From positions 12,648,001 through 12,712,000 of the forward strand of contig CM059432.1 in assembly GCA_030390025.1 (NCBI GenBank): DNA of 64,000 nt, given 5' to 3'. The notes below the pieces were generated by a model that was given only the letters and a program-made list of their open reading frames with translations, ran no database searches and was not told where the DNA came from. A program made the translations under genes and the position numbers. Of the stretch, positions 5,091 through 51,790 are shown piece after piece. The DNA comes from Squalus acanthias (Eukaryota). Every line of letters starts with the position of its first letter. Position 1 is the stretch's first letter.

Positions 5091-6175
5091 ACTCCTCTAT
5101 AAGCTTGCCTGTCAGTTACCTCCATTCAAGGATGAAAAGAAAGAAAGGAGAAAGCAGGAACTTGTATTTATTCAATACCTTCTCATTTCCTCAGCACATT
5201 CCAAAGTGCTTCACAGCTAGTAAGTTATTTTTGAACTGTCGTCACATGTAAAAGAAAGAAAGGCTTGCATTTATATAGCGTCTTTCACGACCTCAGAACG
5301 TCCCAAAGCATTTTACAGCCAATGAACGGAACTGGACAGAGTGCTCAAGGGCAAAGGCAAAATACTGCAGATGTGGGAAATCGGAAATAAAAAACAGAAA
5401 ATGCTGGAAATATTCAGCAGGTCAGGCATCAGCTGTGCAGAGAGTAACAGAGTTAACTTTTCGGGTCGGTGATCTTTCATCAGCACTGGAAAATGTGACA
5501 GATGTCACAGGTTTTAAGCAAGTACAGAGGCAGGGAATTGGGGGGAGGAAAGAACAAAAGGGGAGGTCTGTGATAGGGTGGAAGGCAGGAGAGATTGAAT
5601 GACAAAAGGGATGATGGTGCGAGGCAAAAGGGGGGTGGCAATGGGACAAGTAAAGAAACAAAAGATGGGTCTAGAGGATGCTGTAAATGGCAAGAGCAGC
5701 ATCATTACCAGCACCTACAGCCCGAAAAAAAGTGAGCAGTGGTTATAATCTGAAATTGTTGAACTGAATGTTGGGTCCGGAAGGTTGAAAAGTGCCTAAT
5801 CGAAAGATGAGGTGCTGTTCCTCGAGCCTCCGCTGAGCTTCATTGGAAAAGTCGAGCAGGTTGAGGACAGAGAGGTCAGAGTGGGAGTGGGATGGAGGAT
5901 TAAAATGGCAAGCGAAAGGAAGCTTAGGGTCTCGCTCGAATATTGAATGGAAGTGTTCAGCAAAGCGATCACCCAATCTGTGTTTGGTCTCCCCTGTGTA
6001 GAGGAGGCCACATCGTGATCAGTGACTGCAATATACTAAATTGAAAGAAGTACAAGTAAATCGCTGTTTCACCATGGAAGGAGTATTTGGGGCCCTGGAC
6101 GGTGGGAGGTGAAAGGGCAGGTGTTGCATCTCCTGCACTTGCACGGAAAGGTGAGTGGACCAGGGTGTCGGGGAA

Positions 6176-6526
6176 AGAAAGACTTTCATGACCTCAGGAC
6201 ATCCCAAAGCGCTTTACAGCCAATGAAGTACGTTTGAAGTGCAGCTAATTTGCACACAGCAAGCTCCCACAAACAACAATGTGATAATGACCAAATAATC
6301 TGTTTTTAGTGATGTTGATTGAGGGATAAATATTGGCCAGGACACCGGGAATAACTCCCCTGCTCTTTTTCGAAATAGTGCTATGGGATCTTTTACGTCC
6401 ACCTGGGAGAGCAGACAGGGCCTCAGTTTAATGCACCTCTGGCAGCCCAACATTCCCTCAGCACTGCCCTGGAGTGTCAGGCTAGATTTTTGTGCTCAAG
6501 TCCCTGGAGTGGGACTATGAACCCAC

Positions 6527-6557
<31 letters not shown>

Positions 6558-6578
6558 AACTGAGCCACTGGCTGACAG
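6176..6578 (-). mobile_element. SacSINE1-like SINE inserted in the PLE
   Basis: Same body and head as the other copies; PLE sequence resumes on both sides. Confidence 0.88.
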
Positions 6579-6756
6579 TGACGGAGGGAACAGTCCCTTC
6601 AGAATAAGGAAAGGGGAGGGGAAGATGTGTTTGGTGGTGGCATCGCGCTGGAGATGGTGAAAATGGTGGAAGATGATCTGTTGAATGTGGAGACTGGTGG
6701 GGTGGAAGATGAGGACAAGGGGATCCCTATTGTGGTTCTGGGAGGAAGGGTAAGGT

Positions 6757-8180
6757 TTTTTTTAAATTAGTTCCTGGGATGTGGGCGTCGCTGGCAAGGC
6801 CAGCAATTATTACCCATCCCTAATTGCCTTTGAGAAGGTGGTGGTGAGCCGCCTTCTTGAACCGCTGCAGTCCATGTGGTGAAGGTACTCCCACAGTGCT
6901 GTAAGGGAGGGAGATCCAAGATTTTGACCCAGTGACAATGAAGGAACGGCGATATATTTCCAAGTCAGGATGGTGTGTGACGTGGAGGGTAACTTGGAGG
7001 TGATGGTGTTCCCATGCGCCTGCTGCCCTTGTCCTTCTAGGTGGTAGAGGTCATGGGTTTGGGAGGTGCTGTCGAAGAAGCCTTGGCAAGTTGCTGCAGT
7101 GCATCTTGTAGGTGGTGCACACTGCAGCCACGGTGTGCCGGTGGTGGAGGGAGTGAACGTTTAAGATGGTGGATGGGATGCCAATCAAGCGGGCTGCTTT
7201 GTCCTGGATGGTGTCAAGCTTTTTGAGTATTGTTGGAACTGCACTCATCCAGACAAGTGGAGAGTATTCCATCATACTCCTGACTTGTGCCTTGTAGATG
7301 GTAGAAAGGCTTTGAGGAGTCAGGAGGTGAGACACTTGACGCAGAATACCCAGCCTCTGACCTGCTCTTGTAGCCACAGTATTTATGTGGCTGGTCTAGT
7401 TAAGTTTCTGGTCAATGGTGACCCCCAGGATGTTGATGGTGGGGGATTCGACAATGGTAATGCCATTGAATGTCAAGGGGCAGTGGTTAGACACTCGCTT
7501 GTTGGAGATAGTCATTGCCTGGCACTTGTGTGGCATGAATGTTACTTGCCACTTATCAGCCCAAGCCTAAATGTTGTCCAGGTCTTGCTGCTTGCGGGCA
7601 TGGATGGCTTCATTATCTGGGGAGTTGTGAATGGAACTGAACATTGTGCAATCATCAGCGAACATCCCCACTTCTGACCTCATGAGGGAGGGAAGATCAT
7701 TGATGAAGCAGCTGAAGATGGTTGGGCCGAGGAAACTGCCCTAAGGAACTCCTGCAGCGATGTCCTGGGGCTGAGATGATTGACCTCCAATAACCACAAC
7801 CATCTTCCTTTGTGCTAGGTATGACTCCAGCCAGTGGAGAGTTTTCCCCCAATTCCCATTGACTTCAGTTTTACTAGGGCTCCTTGATGCCACACTCGGT
7901 CAAATGTTGCCTTGATGTCAAGGGCAGTTACTTTCGCCTCACCTCTGGAATTCAGCTCGTTTGTCCATGTTTGGACCAAGGCTGTAATTAAGTCAGTAGC
8001 CGAGTGGTCCGGGCGGATCCCAAACTGAGCATCGGTGAGCAGGTTATTGATGCATAAGTGCCGCTTGATAGCACTGTCGATGACACCTTCCATCACTTTG
8101 CTGATAATTGAGAGTAGACTGATGGTGCGGTAATTGGCCAGATTTGATTTGTCCTGCTTTTTGTGGACAGGATATACCTG
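6757..8180 (-). mobile_element. CR1-type LINE, lineage B, 5'-truncated, inserted in the PLE
   Basis: ORF fragments ALDIKATFDRVWH and IYKAQVRSMMEYSPLVW; 3' end gggcaattaggg..tgctggccttgccagcgacgcccacatccc + A tail; flanks agggtaagg/agggtgagg resemble a TSD. Confidence 0.9.
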
Positions 8181-9859
8181 GGCAGGGTGAGGGCAGAAGT
8201 ACGGGAAATGGGACGGATACAGTTGAGAGCCCTGTCAACCGTGGTGGAAGGGAATCCTCGGTTGAGGAAAAGGGAAGACATATCGGAAGCACTGGTGTGG
8301 AAGGTGGCGTCGTCAGAACAGATGCGACGGAGCCGGAGAATTTGGGAGAATGGAATAGAGATCTTACAGCAAGTGGGGTGGGAGGAAGTGTAATCAAGGT
8401 AGCTGTGGGAGTCAGTTGGCTTGTAGTAGATATTGGTTGACAGCCTATCCCCAAAAATGGTGATAGAGAAGTCGAGGAATGGGAGGGAAGAATCAAAGAT
8501 GGACCATGTGTAGGTGAGGGAGGGATTGAAATTTGAAGCAAAGTTGATGACATTTACCAGTTTGGGGAGAGAGCAGGAAGCGGCACCGATACAGTCATCA
8601 ATGTAGCGGAAAAAGAGGTGAAGGAGGGGACCTGAGTAGGACTGGAGCAACAGTACTCAAGGTGTGGTCTAACCACTATAAGGTTTGAGCACGACTTCCA
8701 TCCCATCTGCATTCTACTCTTATCTTCCTTGAATTCCTAAATTCCTTGAATCTGTACTGTTGGCAGCCACATTTTTTGCGAGTCTCGTTTTAGTGCGTCT
8801 GCAGCGACTTCTAACAAGACGCTCCACGTATTTTGAAATCACTTTGCCCCCACCCCCCCAGGTCATTTGTCTGGAATTAAACAGACAATCTCTGTGCAAA
8901 GTAAGGAGAACAAGTACTCAATGGTGCCTGGAAAGCCACTGTACACTCATGCGGAACCTGTGTGTGAAGATGCTTCGTGGCTCAGAGTGCTGACATTTCA
9001 TTTTTATACTGCGATTGTACTGGTTTGCATAATACGGGTGGTCTTTGTTGGCAGCTTGACATAGGCACGGGTTCAATGCTGCTTTTATATCAGTGTAAAG
9101 TTGCAAGAATGAAAGGGGTATAATTATCCATATAACGCTCCTTTGAACATTACTAGGATTACTTACAATATAAAACTGAAAAATGTGGAACTACTTTGAC
9201 AAACTATTTGTATACTATTTGTATGCAGACCTGGCAACTCTTAACCCACCAGAGTAGCTGAAACCTATTATCACACGAATTACAGGGGTCATTTCAAGTC
9301 TGTCTGCTTGCCATGTTAATATCTTGGTAACCTCTGGCTAAATGATCATGACTACTGGTGGCTATTCCCATAAGTTTTTAGATGTTGGTTTTTTTCTCTC
9401 TCTCTTTCTTGCTGGCTGGCTTTCAACAATGAGATGTGCGCTTACTCCCTCTTTAATATAATGCAGAAGTTTAATTTAGCAGACCCCAGTTTATTATTAC
9501 TGGCTCGCTGTGACCATCTAACATTGCCAAGTTTGGTTGGTTTTGCTATTTATTGTTCCCTAACATTTTCAAATATTTATTTGCTGTGATGTCCACAACT
9601 CAAATTGAAGTGACCTATTGCTTGGGTAAACTGAGAGAGGCAAGATTCAATAACGGGCATCAAGGCTGATTTTTTTTTTCCAAAAAGGTTGTGATTCTTC
9701 AGAGTATTGTCTACAGCTTTCCCATCTGCCTACTATTGTCAGTCAAGAGATTTGGGGAAAGAAGATGCAACATATTTTCGTGAGCTATGAAGTGTTTCTC
9801 TGCAAATATCTTCCTCCACGTGCAATTTTCAGCGGCAAATTGTGTCGCAAGTTGCAAAT

Positions 9860-16924: not shown

Positions 16925-17235
16925 AAAAAATTATTATTTGTTCTTGGGACGTAAGCAAGGCCCCATTTGCTAATAATCCTTAGTTGCCCTGAGGGCAGTG
17001 TGGGACTGGAGTCACATGTAGGCTACACCAGGTAGTGGTGGCAAGCTCCCTTACTTTAAGGACATTAATTAACCAGTAGGGTTTTTTACAACAATCCCAT
17101 AAATTTCATCGGTTTTTTTTGGTGCTAGCCGCCAGATATATTGAATTCAGTTTTACAATATACCACGGGGGTAATTGAATTCACAACCTATGGATTACTA
17201 GTCCAGCACCATAACCACTAGGCTACCAAACCATG
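16925..17235 (-). mobile_element. Second tRNA-derived SINE family with a CR1-lineage-B-like tail
   Basis: Minus-strand head ggtagcctagtggttatggtgctggactagtaatcc; tail cagggcaactaagg..ggggccttgc..gtcccaagaac resembles the lineage B LINE 3' end. Confidence 0.7.
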
Positions 17236-19830: not shown

Positions 19831-20358
19831 CCCCCCTCTCGTGTCAGTATCAAATACTACCAGTTCTAATCTGGCAAAGTGCCCTTTATTCCACCTCAGT
19901 AATGACTCTGCAATTTTGTGCCATTTTTTCCAATTTCCCACAGCACTGCTCCTGTGTCAATCAGTGTGCATTCAGTACAAGGTTGAGGCTGTCCAAACAC
20001 ATTTCACATAGAAAGAAAGAAAGAGAGACTTGCATTTACATAGCGCCTTTCACAACCTCAGGACGTCCCAAAGCGCTTTACCGCCAATGAAGTACTTTTG
20101 AAGTGTAGTCACTGTTGTAATGTTAGCATCCTTATTTGCTTTAATCAGAGAAACCTCTCATCCCATCAGTCCGGGTCCCCGTGATGAAAGACCAACATCT
20201 AATCCACTGCATCACCCAGTCCCACAGTTTGCTTCATCAACACAACAGCTACTTTATATACGATAGCAAAATACTGCGGATGCTGGAAATCTGAAATAAC
20301 AACAGAAAACGCTGGAAAAACTCAGCAGGCCAGGCAGCATCCGTGGAGAGAGAAAGAA

Positions 20359-20395
20359 AGTTAACGTTTCAGGTCGATGACCTTTCGTCAGAACT
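20359..20395 (-). ncRNA. Minimal type I hammerhead ribozyme motif, copy 1
   Basis: Minus strand reads agtt-CTGACGA-a-aggtc-atc-gacct-GAAA-C-GTT-aact: intact core, stem I agtt/aact, stem II aggtc/gacct, loopless palindromic stem III, GUU cleavage triplet. Confidence 0.8.
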
Positions 20396-20726
20396 GTGAA
20401 GAGCCGGAAATCAAATAGATTTAAGGCCAGAGTAAAGCTGGGAAAAGGGGGAGGGGATAAAAGAACAAAGGGGGAGATGAAGAGACATTAAGAGATATGC
20501 AAGGCTAGAGGTGGTGTAAATGTGAACAAGGTTGAAGAGCCAAATGGAAATCCCGTCGAAGAGAAGAGCAGAACTTCTTCAAGGTAGGCATTCCTAGAAG
20601 AGAGGTGGCAGTGAACCAAACACTAATACGATAGCAAAATACTGCGGATGCTGGAAATCTGAAATAACAACAGAAAACGCTGGAAAAACTCAGCAGGCCA
20701 GGCAGCATCCGTGGAGAGAGAAAGAA

Positions 20727-20763
20727 AGTTAACGTTTCAGGTCGATGACCTTTCGTCAGAACT
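20727..20763 (-). ncRNA. Minimal type I hammerhead ribozyme motif, copy 2
   Basis: Identical to 20359-20395, 368 bp away. Confidence 0.8.
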
Positions 20764-21117
20764 GTGAAGAGCCGGAAATCAAATAGATTTAAGGCCAGAG
20801 TAAAGCTACTTTATATAATAGTACGTCATGGTTATGTTATTTACTGATGGTTACAGAATTTAAAGACCGCTGGTACATATGAACATAGGAATTGCTTGAC
20901 GAGAAAAGACCACGGTCCTTCTACCTACCTGGTAGTCACATGATACAATGATAATGGAGTTGTTGAGTAATCAGGGGAATCAATCTCTACCAATTAGTCT
21001 GCAACAGACCCATACACGACCTCAGGAAAATCCCAGTGTTGGAGAGCTTTGGGAACTATAGGTCCAAAGTCACTTGTTCCTCCCAAGCATGCTACACTTA
21101 CCACATGTCACGTCTCA

Positions 21118-29160: not shown

Positions 29161-30316
29161 AAGAAAGACTTGCATTTATGTAGCGCCTTTCACGGCCTCA
29201 GGACGTCCCAAAGCGCTTTACAGCCAACAAAGTACTTTTGACAAAAGCAAAATACTGCAGATGCTGGAAATCTGAAATAAAAACAGAAAATGCTGGAGAT
29301 ACTCAGCAGGTCAGGCAGCATCTGTGGAGAGAGAGAAACAGAGTTAACGTTTCAGGTCAATGACCTTTCGTCAGAACTGGAAAAAATTAGTGATGTAACA
29401 GATTGTATCAAGTGCAGGGGCAGGGAAAGGGGGAAGGGGAGGAAAGGAAAAAAGGGAAAATAGAAACATAGAAAAATAGGAGCAGGAGTAGGCCATTCGG
29501 CCCTTCAAGCCTGCTTCGCCATTCAATATGATCATGGCTGATCCTCTATCTCAATACCATATTCCCGCTCTCTCCCCATACCCCTTGATGCCTTTTGTGT
29601 CTAGAAATCTATCTATCTCCTTCTTAAATATATTCAGTGACTTGGCCTCCACAGCCTTCTGTGGTAGAGAATTCCACAGGTTCACCACCCTCTGAGTGAA
29701 GAAATTTCTCCTCATCTCAGTCCTAAATGTCCTACCCCGTATCCTGAGATTGTGATAGGGTGGAAGGCAGGGGAGATTAAATAACAAAAGGTATGACAGT
29801 ACAAAGCAAAGGGAGATGGTAATGGGACAAGTAAAGAAACAAAAGATGAGTCTAGAAGAGGTGTAAATGGGCATGGCAGAATCATCAACAGCTGCCATGT
29901 GAAAAAATGGGGGGATGAGGTTATGGTCTGAAATTTTGAAGTGTAGTCACTGTTGTAGTATAGGAAACATTAGGCCGCAGCAAGCTCCCACAAACAGCAC
30001 TGTGATAATGAGCAGATAATCAATTTTAGTGATGTTGATTGAGAGATAAATCTTGGCCAGGATACCAGGGATAACTCCCCTGCTCTTCTTTGAAATAGTG
30101 CCATGGGATCATTTACGTCCACCTGAGAGAGCAGACAGGGCCTTGGTTTAACATTTCATCCGAAAGATGGCGCCTTCACAACAATGTAGCACTCCCTCAG
30201 TACTACACTGGAGTGTCAACATGGATTTTTGTGCTGAAGTCTCTGGAGTGGGAGTATGAACCCACAACCCTCCGACCCAGAGGTGAGAGTGCTACCCACT
30301 GAGCCACGGCTAGCAC
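29161..30316 (-). mobile_element. SacSINE1-like SINE split by a PLE fragment (29241-29935), which is itself split by a CR1 3' end (29460-29749)
   Basis: SINE tail at 29161-29240 continues at 29935 (ttttgaagtgtagtcac). The intervening PLE matches 5355-5760. The CR1 shows ORF LRIRGRTFRTEMRRNFFTQRVVNLWN. Confidence 0.88.
29342..29378 (-). ncRNA. Minimal hammerhead ribozyme motif in a PLE terminal repeat
   Basis: Minus strand reads agtt-CTGACGA-aaggtcattgacct-GAAACGTT-aact; the loop differs from the 20.3-kb copies but the stems are intact. Confidence 0.78.
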
Positions 30317-44848: not shown

Positions 44849-45509
44849 TGACAGTTGAAGAAAATCATGTTAATGGACAACTTCTGGGTGACAAAGCCTA
44901 TCTCCCGACTCCCATGGATAATGATCCCAGAAAGTACGACACCAACCAGCTCATAGTAAATTTATTTCTGTGCTGTTTATAATTCAGGTGATGATTGGGC
45001 AGGTTCCATTTTATGTTTGCAAATGGAAAGGTGGTTTTGGAAGCTGGGAAGTTTCATGTGCAGAATCAGGGCTCATTCTATCTAAAAAGCAACAGCTCAA
45101 ACATGACTCAAGCACAGCTCTCCACACAGTCTCAGATTTGACCAACTGGATTAATGCAGAATTAGGCTGGACCAACGACGAGGCAGATTCTTCACCAAGG
45201 CTGCTGGGTGAGGTCACAAGGCTTGTTCCTGTTTTAAACCAGGACTCGTCAGACAGAATCGAGCAGAACTGGAAACCAAAACAAGCGCTCCCTTTTTCAA
45301 CGAGAAGCACCACAAAGATAAAAGAGGTGGGAGTTCAGTCTAAACAAAAATGCAAATTAATACTTAGTGCAAACATAGGGTGAACGGTGCAGTATGCATT
45401 CTATGGTGCCCACTGGTAGCAGAAGGTTTCCAACAAGTCGGTGGACATCAAACATTCATGCTCTAGGCTTATCTGGATGTGGGGTGGACCGTTTGTCAGC
45501 CATCCCATT

Positions 45510-50789: not shown

Positions 50790-51252
50790 TGGGATGAGAG
50801 GGTTGTCCTATGAGAAGAGATTGAGTAGATTGGGCCTATACTCTCTGGAGTTTAGAAGAATGAGAGGTGATCTCATTGAAACGTACAAGATTCTGAAGGG
50901 GATTGACAGGGTAGATGCTGAGAGGTTGTTTCCCCCTGGCTGGAGAGTCTAGAACTAGGGGGCATAGTCTCAGGATAAGGGGTAGGCCATTTAAGACTGA
51001 GATGAGGAGGAATTTCTTCACTCAGAGGGTTGTGAATCTTTGGAATTCTCAACCCAAAGGGCTGTGGATGCTGAGTCATTGAACATATTCAAGGCTGAGA
51101 TAGATAGATTTTTGAACTCGAGGGGAATCAAGAGATATGCAGGAAAGTGGAGTTGAGGTCGAAGATCAGCCATGATCTTATTGAACGGCGGAGCAGGCTC
51201 AAGCTGCCGTATGGCCTACTCCTGCTCCTAATTCTTATGTGCTTATGTTCTT
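50790..51252 (+). mobile_element. CR1 lineage A 3' end
   Basis: GMRGLSYEKRLSRLGLYSLEFRRMRGDLIETYKIL; (cttatgtt) tail. Confidence 0.9.
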
Positions 51253-51321
51253 GTTGAAGTTAATACATTTTTGTGGTACAGTTCCACCCATGGCCTTACT
51301 TCACAGACTCTGACAGTGGGT

Positions 51322-51790
51322 CATAAGAACATAAGAACATAAGAAGTAAGAGCAGGAGTAGGCCATACGGCCCCTCGAGCCTGCTCCGCCATTCAATAAG
51401 ATCATGGCTGATCATTGACCTCAACTGCACTTTCCCGCCCGATCCCCATATCCCTTGATTCCCCTAGTGCCCAAAAATCTATCTATCTCAGCCTTGAATA
51501 TACTCAAAGACTCAGCATTCACAACCCTCTGGGGCAGAGAATTCCAAAGATTCACAACCCTCTGAGTGAAGAAATTCTTCCTCATCTCGGTCTTAAATGG
51601 CCAACCCCTTATCCTGAGACTATGCCCCCTAGTTCTAGACACTCCAGCCAGATGAAGCAGCCTCTCAGCATCTACCCTGTCAATCCTCTTCAGAATCTTG
51701 TAAGTTTCAATGAGATCTCATTCTTCTAAACTCCAGAGTGTATCGGCCCAATCTACACAATCTCTCATCATAGGACAGCCCTCTCACCCT
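51322..51790 (-). mobile_element. CR1 lineage A 3' end, inverted relative to the previous copy
   Basis: (cataagaa)n tail; ORF 51421-51642. Confidence 0.9.

Follow-up and report, generated by a model that had tools for sequence, protein, structure and literature searches.

In a 64,000-nt window of the Squalus acanthias genome (assembly GCA_030390025.1, contig CM059432.1, positions 12,648,001 to 12,712,000; all coordinates below are those of the window), two hammerhead ribozyme motifs lie 368 nt apart inside a short unit that is flanked by a duplicated target site. The question raised by this locus is whether the unit is a retrozyme, as a first-pass annotation based on the sequence had suggested, or an insertion of a Penelope-like element (PLE) from which most of the coding sequence is missing.

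Direct repeats, target site and empty allele

The core of the element is a 182-nt direct repeat, with segments 20258–20439 and 20626–20807 being 100% identical at a spacing of 368 nt, in exact agreement with the first-pass annotation. With a unit of 368 nt, the array comprises only 1.49 units. TRF (2/5/7, period up to 500, score 30), run with settings that differ from those of preprint 10.64898/2026.07.22.740005, reported no 368-nt array at the element. The features of the element are collected in Table 1. The AT-rich 14-mer that bounds it is an exact duplicate (20247–20260 and 20804–20817), and the chance expectation of such a pair within 20 nt of both element ends is ~7e-6. The target-site duplication (TSD) overlaps the element by 3 nt at the left end and 4 nt at the right end. 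Sharing of a few nucleotides between element ends and target is expected of target-primed synthesis.

An empty site was found in a contig from the DNA run X1 (312 nt, depth 5.66), in which positions 20130–20246 are joined straight to 20804–20951. This contig carries a single copy of the 14-mer, is devoid of any pLTR and contains one mismatch in its left part and none in its right part (1 in 265 aligned bases). It alone covers bin 20820–20849 in X1. Because the X1 contig shows the empty site, the TSD is real and the net insertion of 557 bp is missing from at least one chromosome. The evidence consists of one contig from one run, and run X6 has no cover of the right flank beside the site and is hence uninformative there. 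A presence/absence comparison had been proposed in the first-pass annotation, and the X1 contig provides the absent state: the insertion is young, as an empty allele exists. If the source of X1 is the species of the window, the site is polymorphic; if it is a close relative, the insertion is lineage-specific. The earlier argument for recency had been drawn from repeat identity. Recency stands on account of the empty site, whereas identity by itself only bounds divergence, because both copies were made from the same sequence (0 differences in 182 bp, i.e. <1.6%).

Table 1. Features of the element, in window coordinates
Feature	Position	Strand	Basis
TSD, left copy; AT-rich 14-mer sharing its last 3 nt with the element end	20247..20260		single in empty-site contig
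Downstream pLTR copy, 3' end of the PLE RNA	20258..20439	-	direction taken from ORF polarity
Minimal type I hammerhead B, predicted cut 20363/20362	20359..20395	-	motif
Remnant of 3' UTR of the parent subfamily	20440..20522	-	gapped alignment to PLE 3' UTR at 5495 onward; very deep X1 cover
Deletion junction, codon 23 to 3' UTR; microhomology ≤3 nt	20522..20523	-	probable loss of ~2.7 kb
ATG and first 23 codons of Neptune-type PLE ORF; 5 unrelated codons on to stop	20523..20591	-	P0149 match
Leader between pLTR and ATG, 34 nt, size of a PLE 'tail'	20592..20625	-	putative tail
Upstream pLTR copy, 5'-truncated; extends 73–77 nt beyond hammerhead cut	20626..20807	-	repeat identity
Minimal type I hammerhead A, predicted cut 20731/20730	20727..20763	-	motif
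TSD, right copy; first 4 nt also match element end	20804..20817		exact duplicate, empty site

Origin of the spacer and the parent subfamily

In RNA order, the element is composed of a truncated pLTR, the leader, an ORF start, the junction, 3' UTR and the second pLTR. The spacer on the minus strand contains the 34-nt leader, 23 codons that begin with an ATG at 20591, and 83 nt of 3' UTR; the PLE tail is described as 30–40 bp in size (PMC8557442). Protein P0149 of Heterodontus francisci shares 19 of 23 residues with the ORF start and none of the next five. The search match has an E-value of 9e-4, the other two of the three matches being repetitive proteins, and this part of P0149 in turn matches residues 1–72 of P0039, a full-length PLE protein of 904 aa, with an E-value of 1e-11. 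Pfam gave sub-threshold RT and GIY-YIG matches for P0039 and none for P0149 or the RT piece of the window. A word-index search with the 28-residue peptide returned no match, nor was the peptide recognised by a profile built from PLE N-termini of the invertebrate type (65 of 1000 shuffles scored as well). At least five contigs, from three runs, cease to match at 20523–20524, and in X9 the loose end before 20523 (the consensus of two contigs) extends the ORF without a change of frame on manual translation, P0149 having the same residue at 5 of 10 positions. The P0149 match and this contig evidence from other copies identify the spacer as a PLE ORF start. Because the ORF continues elsewhere, ~2.7 kb were probably lost between codon 23 and the 3' UTR, a size derived from the median homologue of 905 aa. 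A gapped local alignment to the PLE 3' UTR at 5 kb reaches 20547, past the junction; this extension was taken as purine-rich noise, since 20523 is the limit given by both the P0149 match and the contig ends. A 21-nt pattern from the spacer occurred at four metagenome loci and in no viral sequence, as matches of 21–23 nt without a PLE protein, and was attributed to chance.

The spacer is not novel sequence; it is PLE leader, ORF start and 3' UTR, and the element has the common make-up of a PLE partial tandem minus the middle. The only frame from an ATG at the element ends after 28 codons, in line with the earlier remark that no RT is encoded. With neither an intact RT nor a GIY-YIG ORF, the element is not an autonomous PLE.

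Among the 57 long homologues examined, all 56 that were testable, P0039 among them, carry the Neptune-type linker CX2-5CxxC, and so does the PLE at 5355–8650. This linker is common to Neptune and Nematis (PMC8557442), and the link of the parent to Neptune runs through the N-terminus of the homologues, not through the parent's own linker. The PLE at 5355–8650, whose family the first-pass annotation had put forward as the mobiliser, is a decayed Neptune-type element with RT at 8174–8650, the linker motif, an endonuclease at 5740–6069 and a stop at 5745–5743. It is broken by repeats at ~6183–6577 and 6757–8185, is frameshifted and has a mutated hammerhead, and its end at 5357 is 82.6% identical to the element over 132 nt. 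It belongs to the same clade as the parent of the element and to a different subfamily, and this copy cannot be the mobiliser. The best relatives of the RT fragment at 8168–8632 are from rays and sharks, which marks the window as chondrichthyan. A second PLE 3' end lies at 29243–29469 and 29751–29943, interrupted by a LINE-type 3' fragment with further copies in the window. The end at 29246 is 91% identical to the element over 134 nt and has an intact hammerhead (29374–29346, minus strand). Both PLE ends differ from the element on the plus-strand downstream side of the hammerhead, as do most copies in the runs. The element-type 3' UTR is present in X1 at ~1e5 times the contig depth of the empty site. 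As summed depth is no copy number, the parent subfamily is described only as 'very abundant': the parent is another, very abundant PLE subfamily.

Hammerhead motifs and comparison with known systems

Each repeat contains an intact minus-strand motif, as had been noted, and both are of the minimal PLE type, with a 4-bp stem I, CUGACGA, one unpaired A, a 5-bp stem II closed by a 3-nt loop, GAAA and a loopless CG. The predicted cuts follow GUU at 20363 and 20731, 368 nt apart. The unit thus holds two complete type I hammerhead motifs in tandem, whose stems I and II alone have a predicted energy of -5.9 kcal/mol. Rfam gave five matches in the window at E ≤ 1, none of them a hammerhead and none at the element, which says nothing against minimal motifs. 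In the predicted ensemble, stem II forms with a probability of 0.85–0.98, the palindromes are unpaired across the unit and the core tends towards pairing with the strand that is to be cleaved. Relative to the ensemble, the double-hammerhead fold costs 19 kcal/mol and the half-dimers 12.6–13.1 kcal/mol, in a folding model that has no tertiary energy and no positive control. The circular 368-nt monomer (MFE -63.1 kcal/mol, 43% paired, z -1.1) was matched by 14 of 100 shuffles, and the circle is predicted not to be unusually structured. Minimal hammerheads cleaved poorly even in dimer form (PMC4209133), and one of nine Xenopus hammerhead dimers was cleaved (10.64898/2026.07.22.740005); this low published activity points in the same direction as the fold energies. 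Across copies, 2 of 37 positions of the hammerhead motif vary, both as tolerated variants, compared with 16 of 101 in the adjacent pLTR (p 0.09, for contigs preselected at 90% identity). The hammerhead therefore looks better conserved than its surroundings, which would reflect function in the PLE family at large and not in this unit. At 20731, GUC replaces the GUU cleavage triplet in 2.5–4.6% of the summed depth in all four runs. Opposite-strand joints occur at the 5' edge of the hammerheads (20394–20396 and 20762–20764; X1, X9 and X6), as inverted pLTR junctions elsewhere would give.

The motifs resemble the minimal hammerheads of PLEs (PMC4209133), which are of type I without a helix III loop and have an unpaired base after A9, a 4-bp helix I and a palindromic 15.2–16.2, and the arrangement of two copies in direct pLTRs as a partial tandem within a TSD is also that of PLEs. 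The element differs from such PLEs in its ORF of only 23 codons, in the distance between motifs (368 nt versus about 3 kb) and in a basal A-U pair in helix II in place of the conserved G10.1-C11.1. With metazoan non-LTR retrozymes, as described in the available text of PMC7229834 (Cervera and De la Pena 2020) and 10.64898/2026.07.22.740005, it shares unit size, tandem type I hammerheads and PLE pLTR homology. Its 368-nt unit falls within 150–450 bp, its GC content (44.6%) is below 50%, it encodes no protein and its TSD (14 bp) exceeds 4 bp. In contrast, retrozymes have at least two consecutive units (1.49 here), a canonical ribozyme with a 6-bp helix I and loop-loop contacts (minimal PLE type here) and a highly self-paired circular monomer, as in the circles of PMC7229834, which is not predicted for the element. 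The retrozymes of the preprint are attributed, in its available text, to local pLTR amplification, whereas this element would have arisen through an internal deletion, with the product inserted at an empty site. On the other side, pLTRs with a minimal hammerhead, a partial tandem, PLE ORF sequence and an AT-rich target with a TSD are all present, as in a PLE-derived insertion. In mechanism the element resembles a PLE insertion and in outline a retrozyme dimer, and it is not filed as a retrozyme. Of the retrozyme-like character first ascribed to it, the PLE origin, the unit size, the two motifs and the TSD stand; the number of units, the ribozyme type and the predicted lack of structure in a circular monomer speak against it.

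Two groups of non-autonomous elements are related in design. R2 SIDEs (PMC6765202) keep both ends of a ribozyme-bearing retroelement and lose the ORF, and non-autonomous PLEs of Chlamys such as MRC1 (PMC8557442) keep the pLTR-forming ends and lose the ORF. Unlike the element, for which one copy is established, these are multi-copy and moved in trans according to the available text of both sources. The Poseidon PLE of Anolis carolinensis (Frangieh et al. 2024, PMC11167929) likewise has an AT-rich target and a fixed cDNA start downstream of the hammerhead cut. It belongs to another clade and its hammerhead overlaps the ORF start, versus about 135 nt upstream of the ATG here. A derivation of animal retrozymes from PLE ends is proposed in the preprint (Li, Clavereau and Pollet 2026, 10.64898/2026.07.22.740005), which reports such retrozymes from one chondrichthyan, where the consensus length averages 363 bp, and calls its own life-cycle evidence limited. 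In the available text of PMC7229834 and the preprint, the link between retrozymes and PLEs rests on co-occurrence, pLTR similarity and a proposed cycle. Titles on shark Penelope hammerheads and shark retrozymes do not describe the element, which the supplementary family table of the preprint may include.

Junction copy number and origin of the element

The copy number of the junction separates a family from a single event. In X1, depth falls from 565k to 50.6k on entering the junction bin (20520–20549), which has at most 9% of the depth of the adjacent 3' UTR bin. Compared with the depth expected from a 3-nt spill from the 3' UTR side, the bin has 50.6k/56.5k in X1, 378/390 in X9 and 32/47 in X16 (X9 and X16 after removal of the listed ORF-side records), so edge effects account for it in all three runs computed. 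No contig bridging 20522/20523 is among the matches listed (32 records; short junction contigs could stand among 115,207 further rows). As contig depth needs no coverage across the junction, a high-copy family with this junction is unlikely; tens to hundreds of junction copies would not show in X1 summed depth. Word shares of 0.75–0.77 (organism A) were set aside, as contigs lose rare variants. A one-off PLE with a unique junction is more likely than a retrozyme family.

We consider it somewhat probable that the element is a recent target-primed insertion of a Neptune-type PLE lacking ~2.7 kb, generated by a one-off or rare RT jump. The presumed GIY-YIG endonuclease of the parent would have cut an AT-rich site with the 14-nt stagger seen in the TSD. 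RT would have started at the usual 3' end of the family, 20258–20261, probably 102–105 nt downstream of the hammerhead cut, and copied 265 nt; the anatomy of the element is consistent with a jump at this point to ORF codon 23 on the same or a sister RNA. It would then have run through the leader into the upstream pLTR and stopped after 182 nt, 73–77 nt past the upstream cut. The jump may have taken place in the same round or one shortly before, and the junction would therefore be unique or rare. Each hammerhead would be the usual motif of a pLTR in a partial tandem, and the deletion would have reduced the distance between the two to 368 nt. Partial tandems that create pLTRs are a normal PLE product (PMC8557442). 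In vitro, the anole PLE cuts AT-rich DNA, and hammerhead cleavage is protein-assisted and not needed for insertion (PMC11167929). The template would most simply be uncleaved RNA, with neither cleavage nor a circle required. Counting against this account, the seamless 1.49-unit product crosses the cut site twice and also fits a circle; the sequence would be equally seamless whether the RT copied uncleaved RNA, jumped between the ends of cleaved RNA or followed a circle, so these templates are indistinguishable. A unique junction would make the element something that an active PLE produces routinely, and would caution against reading every unit with two hammerheads as a retrozyme.

Tentatively, and with clearly lower probability, the element may belong to a low-copy non-autonomous family, retrozyme or SIDE-like, in which dimeric hammerheads excise a 368-nt RNA, a circle or multimer is copied for more than one round by the parent RT in trans, and the 23 codons are kept as a protein-binding signal. 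The two intact motifs, the unit size, the GC content and the TSD fit the retrozyme outline of PMC7229834, the chondrichthyan consensus is close in length, and the anole PLE requires the ORF start for RNA recognition (PMC11167929). X1 also contains three other joints of the ORF start to pLTR or 3' UTR (20397, 20462 and 20473 to 20524 and 20537), two of them at 20524 and one with 6-nt microhomology. If nothing intervenes, they imply units of 242, 307 and 305 nt; they are present at 3.2–7.8 times the empty-site depth, with short sides of 22–26 nt that are flagged as unreliable. As a lead only, they hint at sister mini-elements that recur and multiply, which would weigh against a one-off jump. Exact matches to the leader and ORF start are present in X9 (20561–20650) and X16 (20554–20634), runs guessed to be RNA; given this guess and contigs only, their depth was not taken as expression, and full-length parents explain these exact pieces equally well. 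The lower variability of the motif than of the adjacent pLTR would fit such a family, but this conservation belongs to the whole PLE family and not to the 368-nt unit. The junction results above, the cost of the double-hammerhead fold in the model used, and the weak dimers of PMC4209133 and of Xenopus also stand against it.

A bolder form of this idea, which we regard as unlikely, is that a shark retrozyme is nascent here and the locus is one of its copies, still segregating: a Neptune PLE deletion in which the ORF start was retained for packaging, inserted in trans from a 368-nt circle. If true, the locus, with its TSD, empty site and seamless 1.49-unit product, would show directly at the genomic level that animal retrozymes are mobilised by PLE proteins, and the minimal cis signal would be marked by joints recurring near codon 23.

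It is improbable that a full-length PLE was inserted and later lost its middle through DNA repair: junction microhomology of up to 3 nt and the intact pLTRs and TSD would suit this course, but the youth of the insertion (empty allele, identical repeats) would require two events in a short time, and no longer allele is among the matches listed. Very improbable is an origin from a high-copy retrozyme satellite, of which the element would be one piece, or from an old pLTR duplicated locally in tandem, since, despite the proposal of local amplification of PLE ends as the origin of retrozymes (10.64898/2026.07.22.740005), the empty site without any pLTR means that all 557 bp arrived at once, the array has only 1.49 units and the X1 junction bin is shallow.

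On the preferred reading of a PLE insertion with an internal deletion, the locus exemplifies one concrete route to a retrozyme-shaped dimer, by deletion and a single empty-site insertion and not by local amplification. It is also a compact natural substrate for asking whether closely spaced minimal hammerheads cleave as cis-dimers.

Elsewhere in the window, an open frame at 44925–45383 (plus strand) may be a host exon, with no PDB match and an unreliable Atlas match. A degenerate tRNA-like stretch at 17166–17232 (minus strand; 27 bits, sub-threshold) is perhaps a SINE head. The long inverted repeat at 51205–51372, whose MIR530 match is far below the gathering score, apparently consists of two LINE 3' ends placed back to back.
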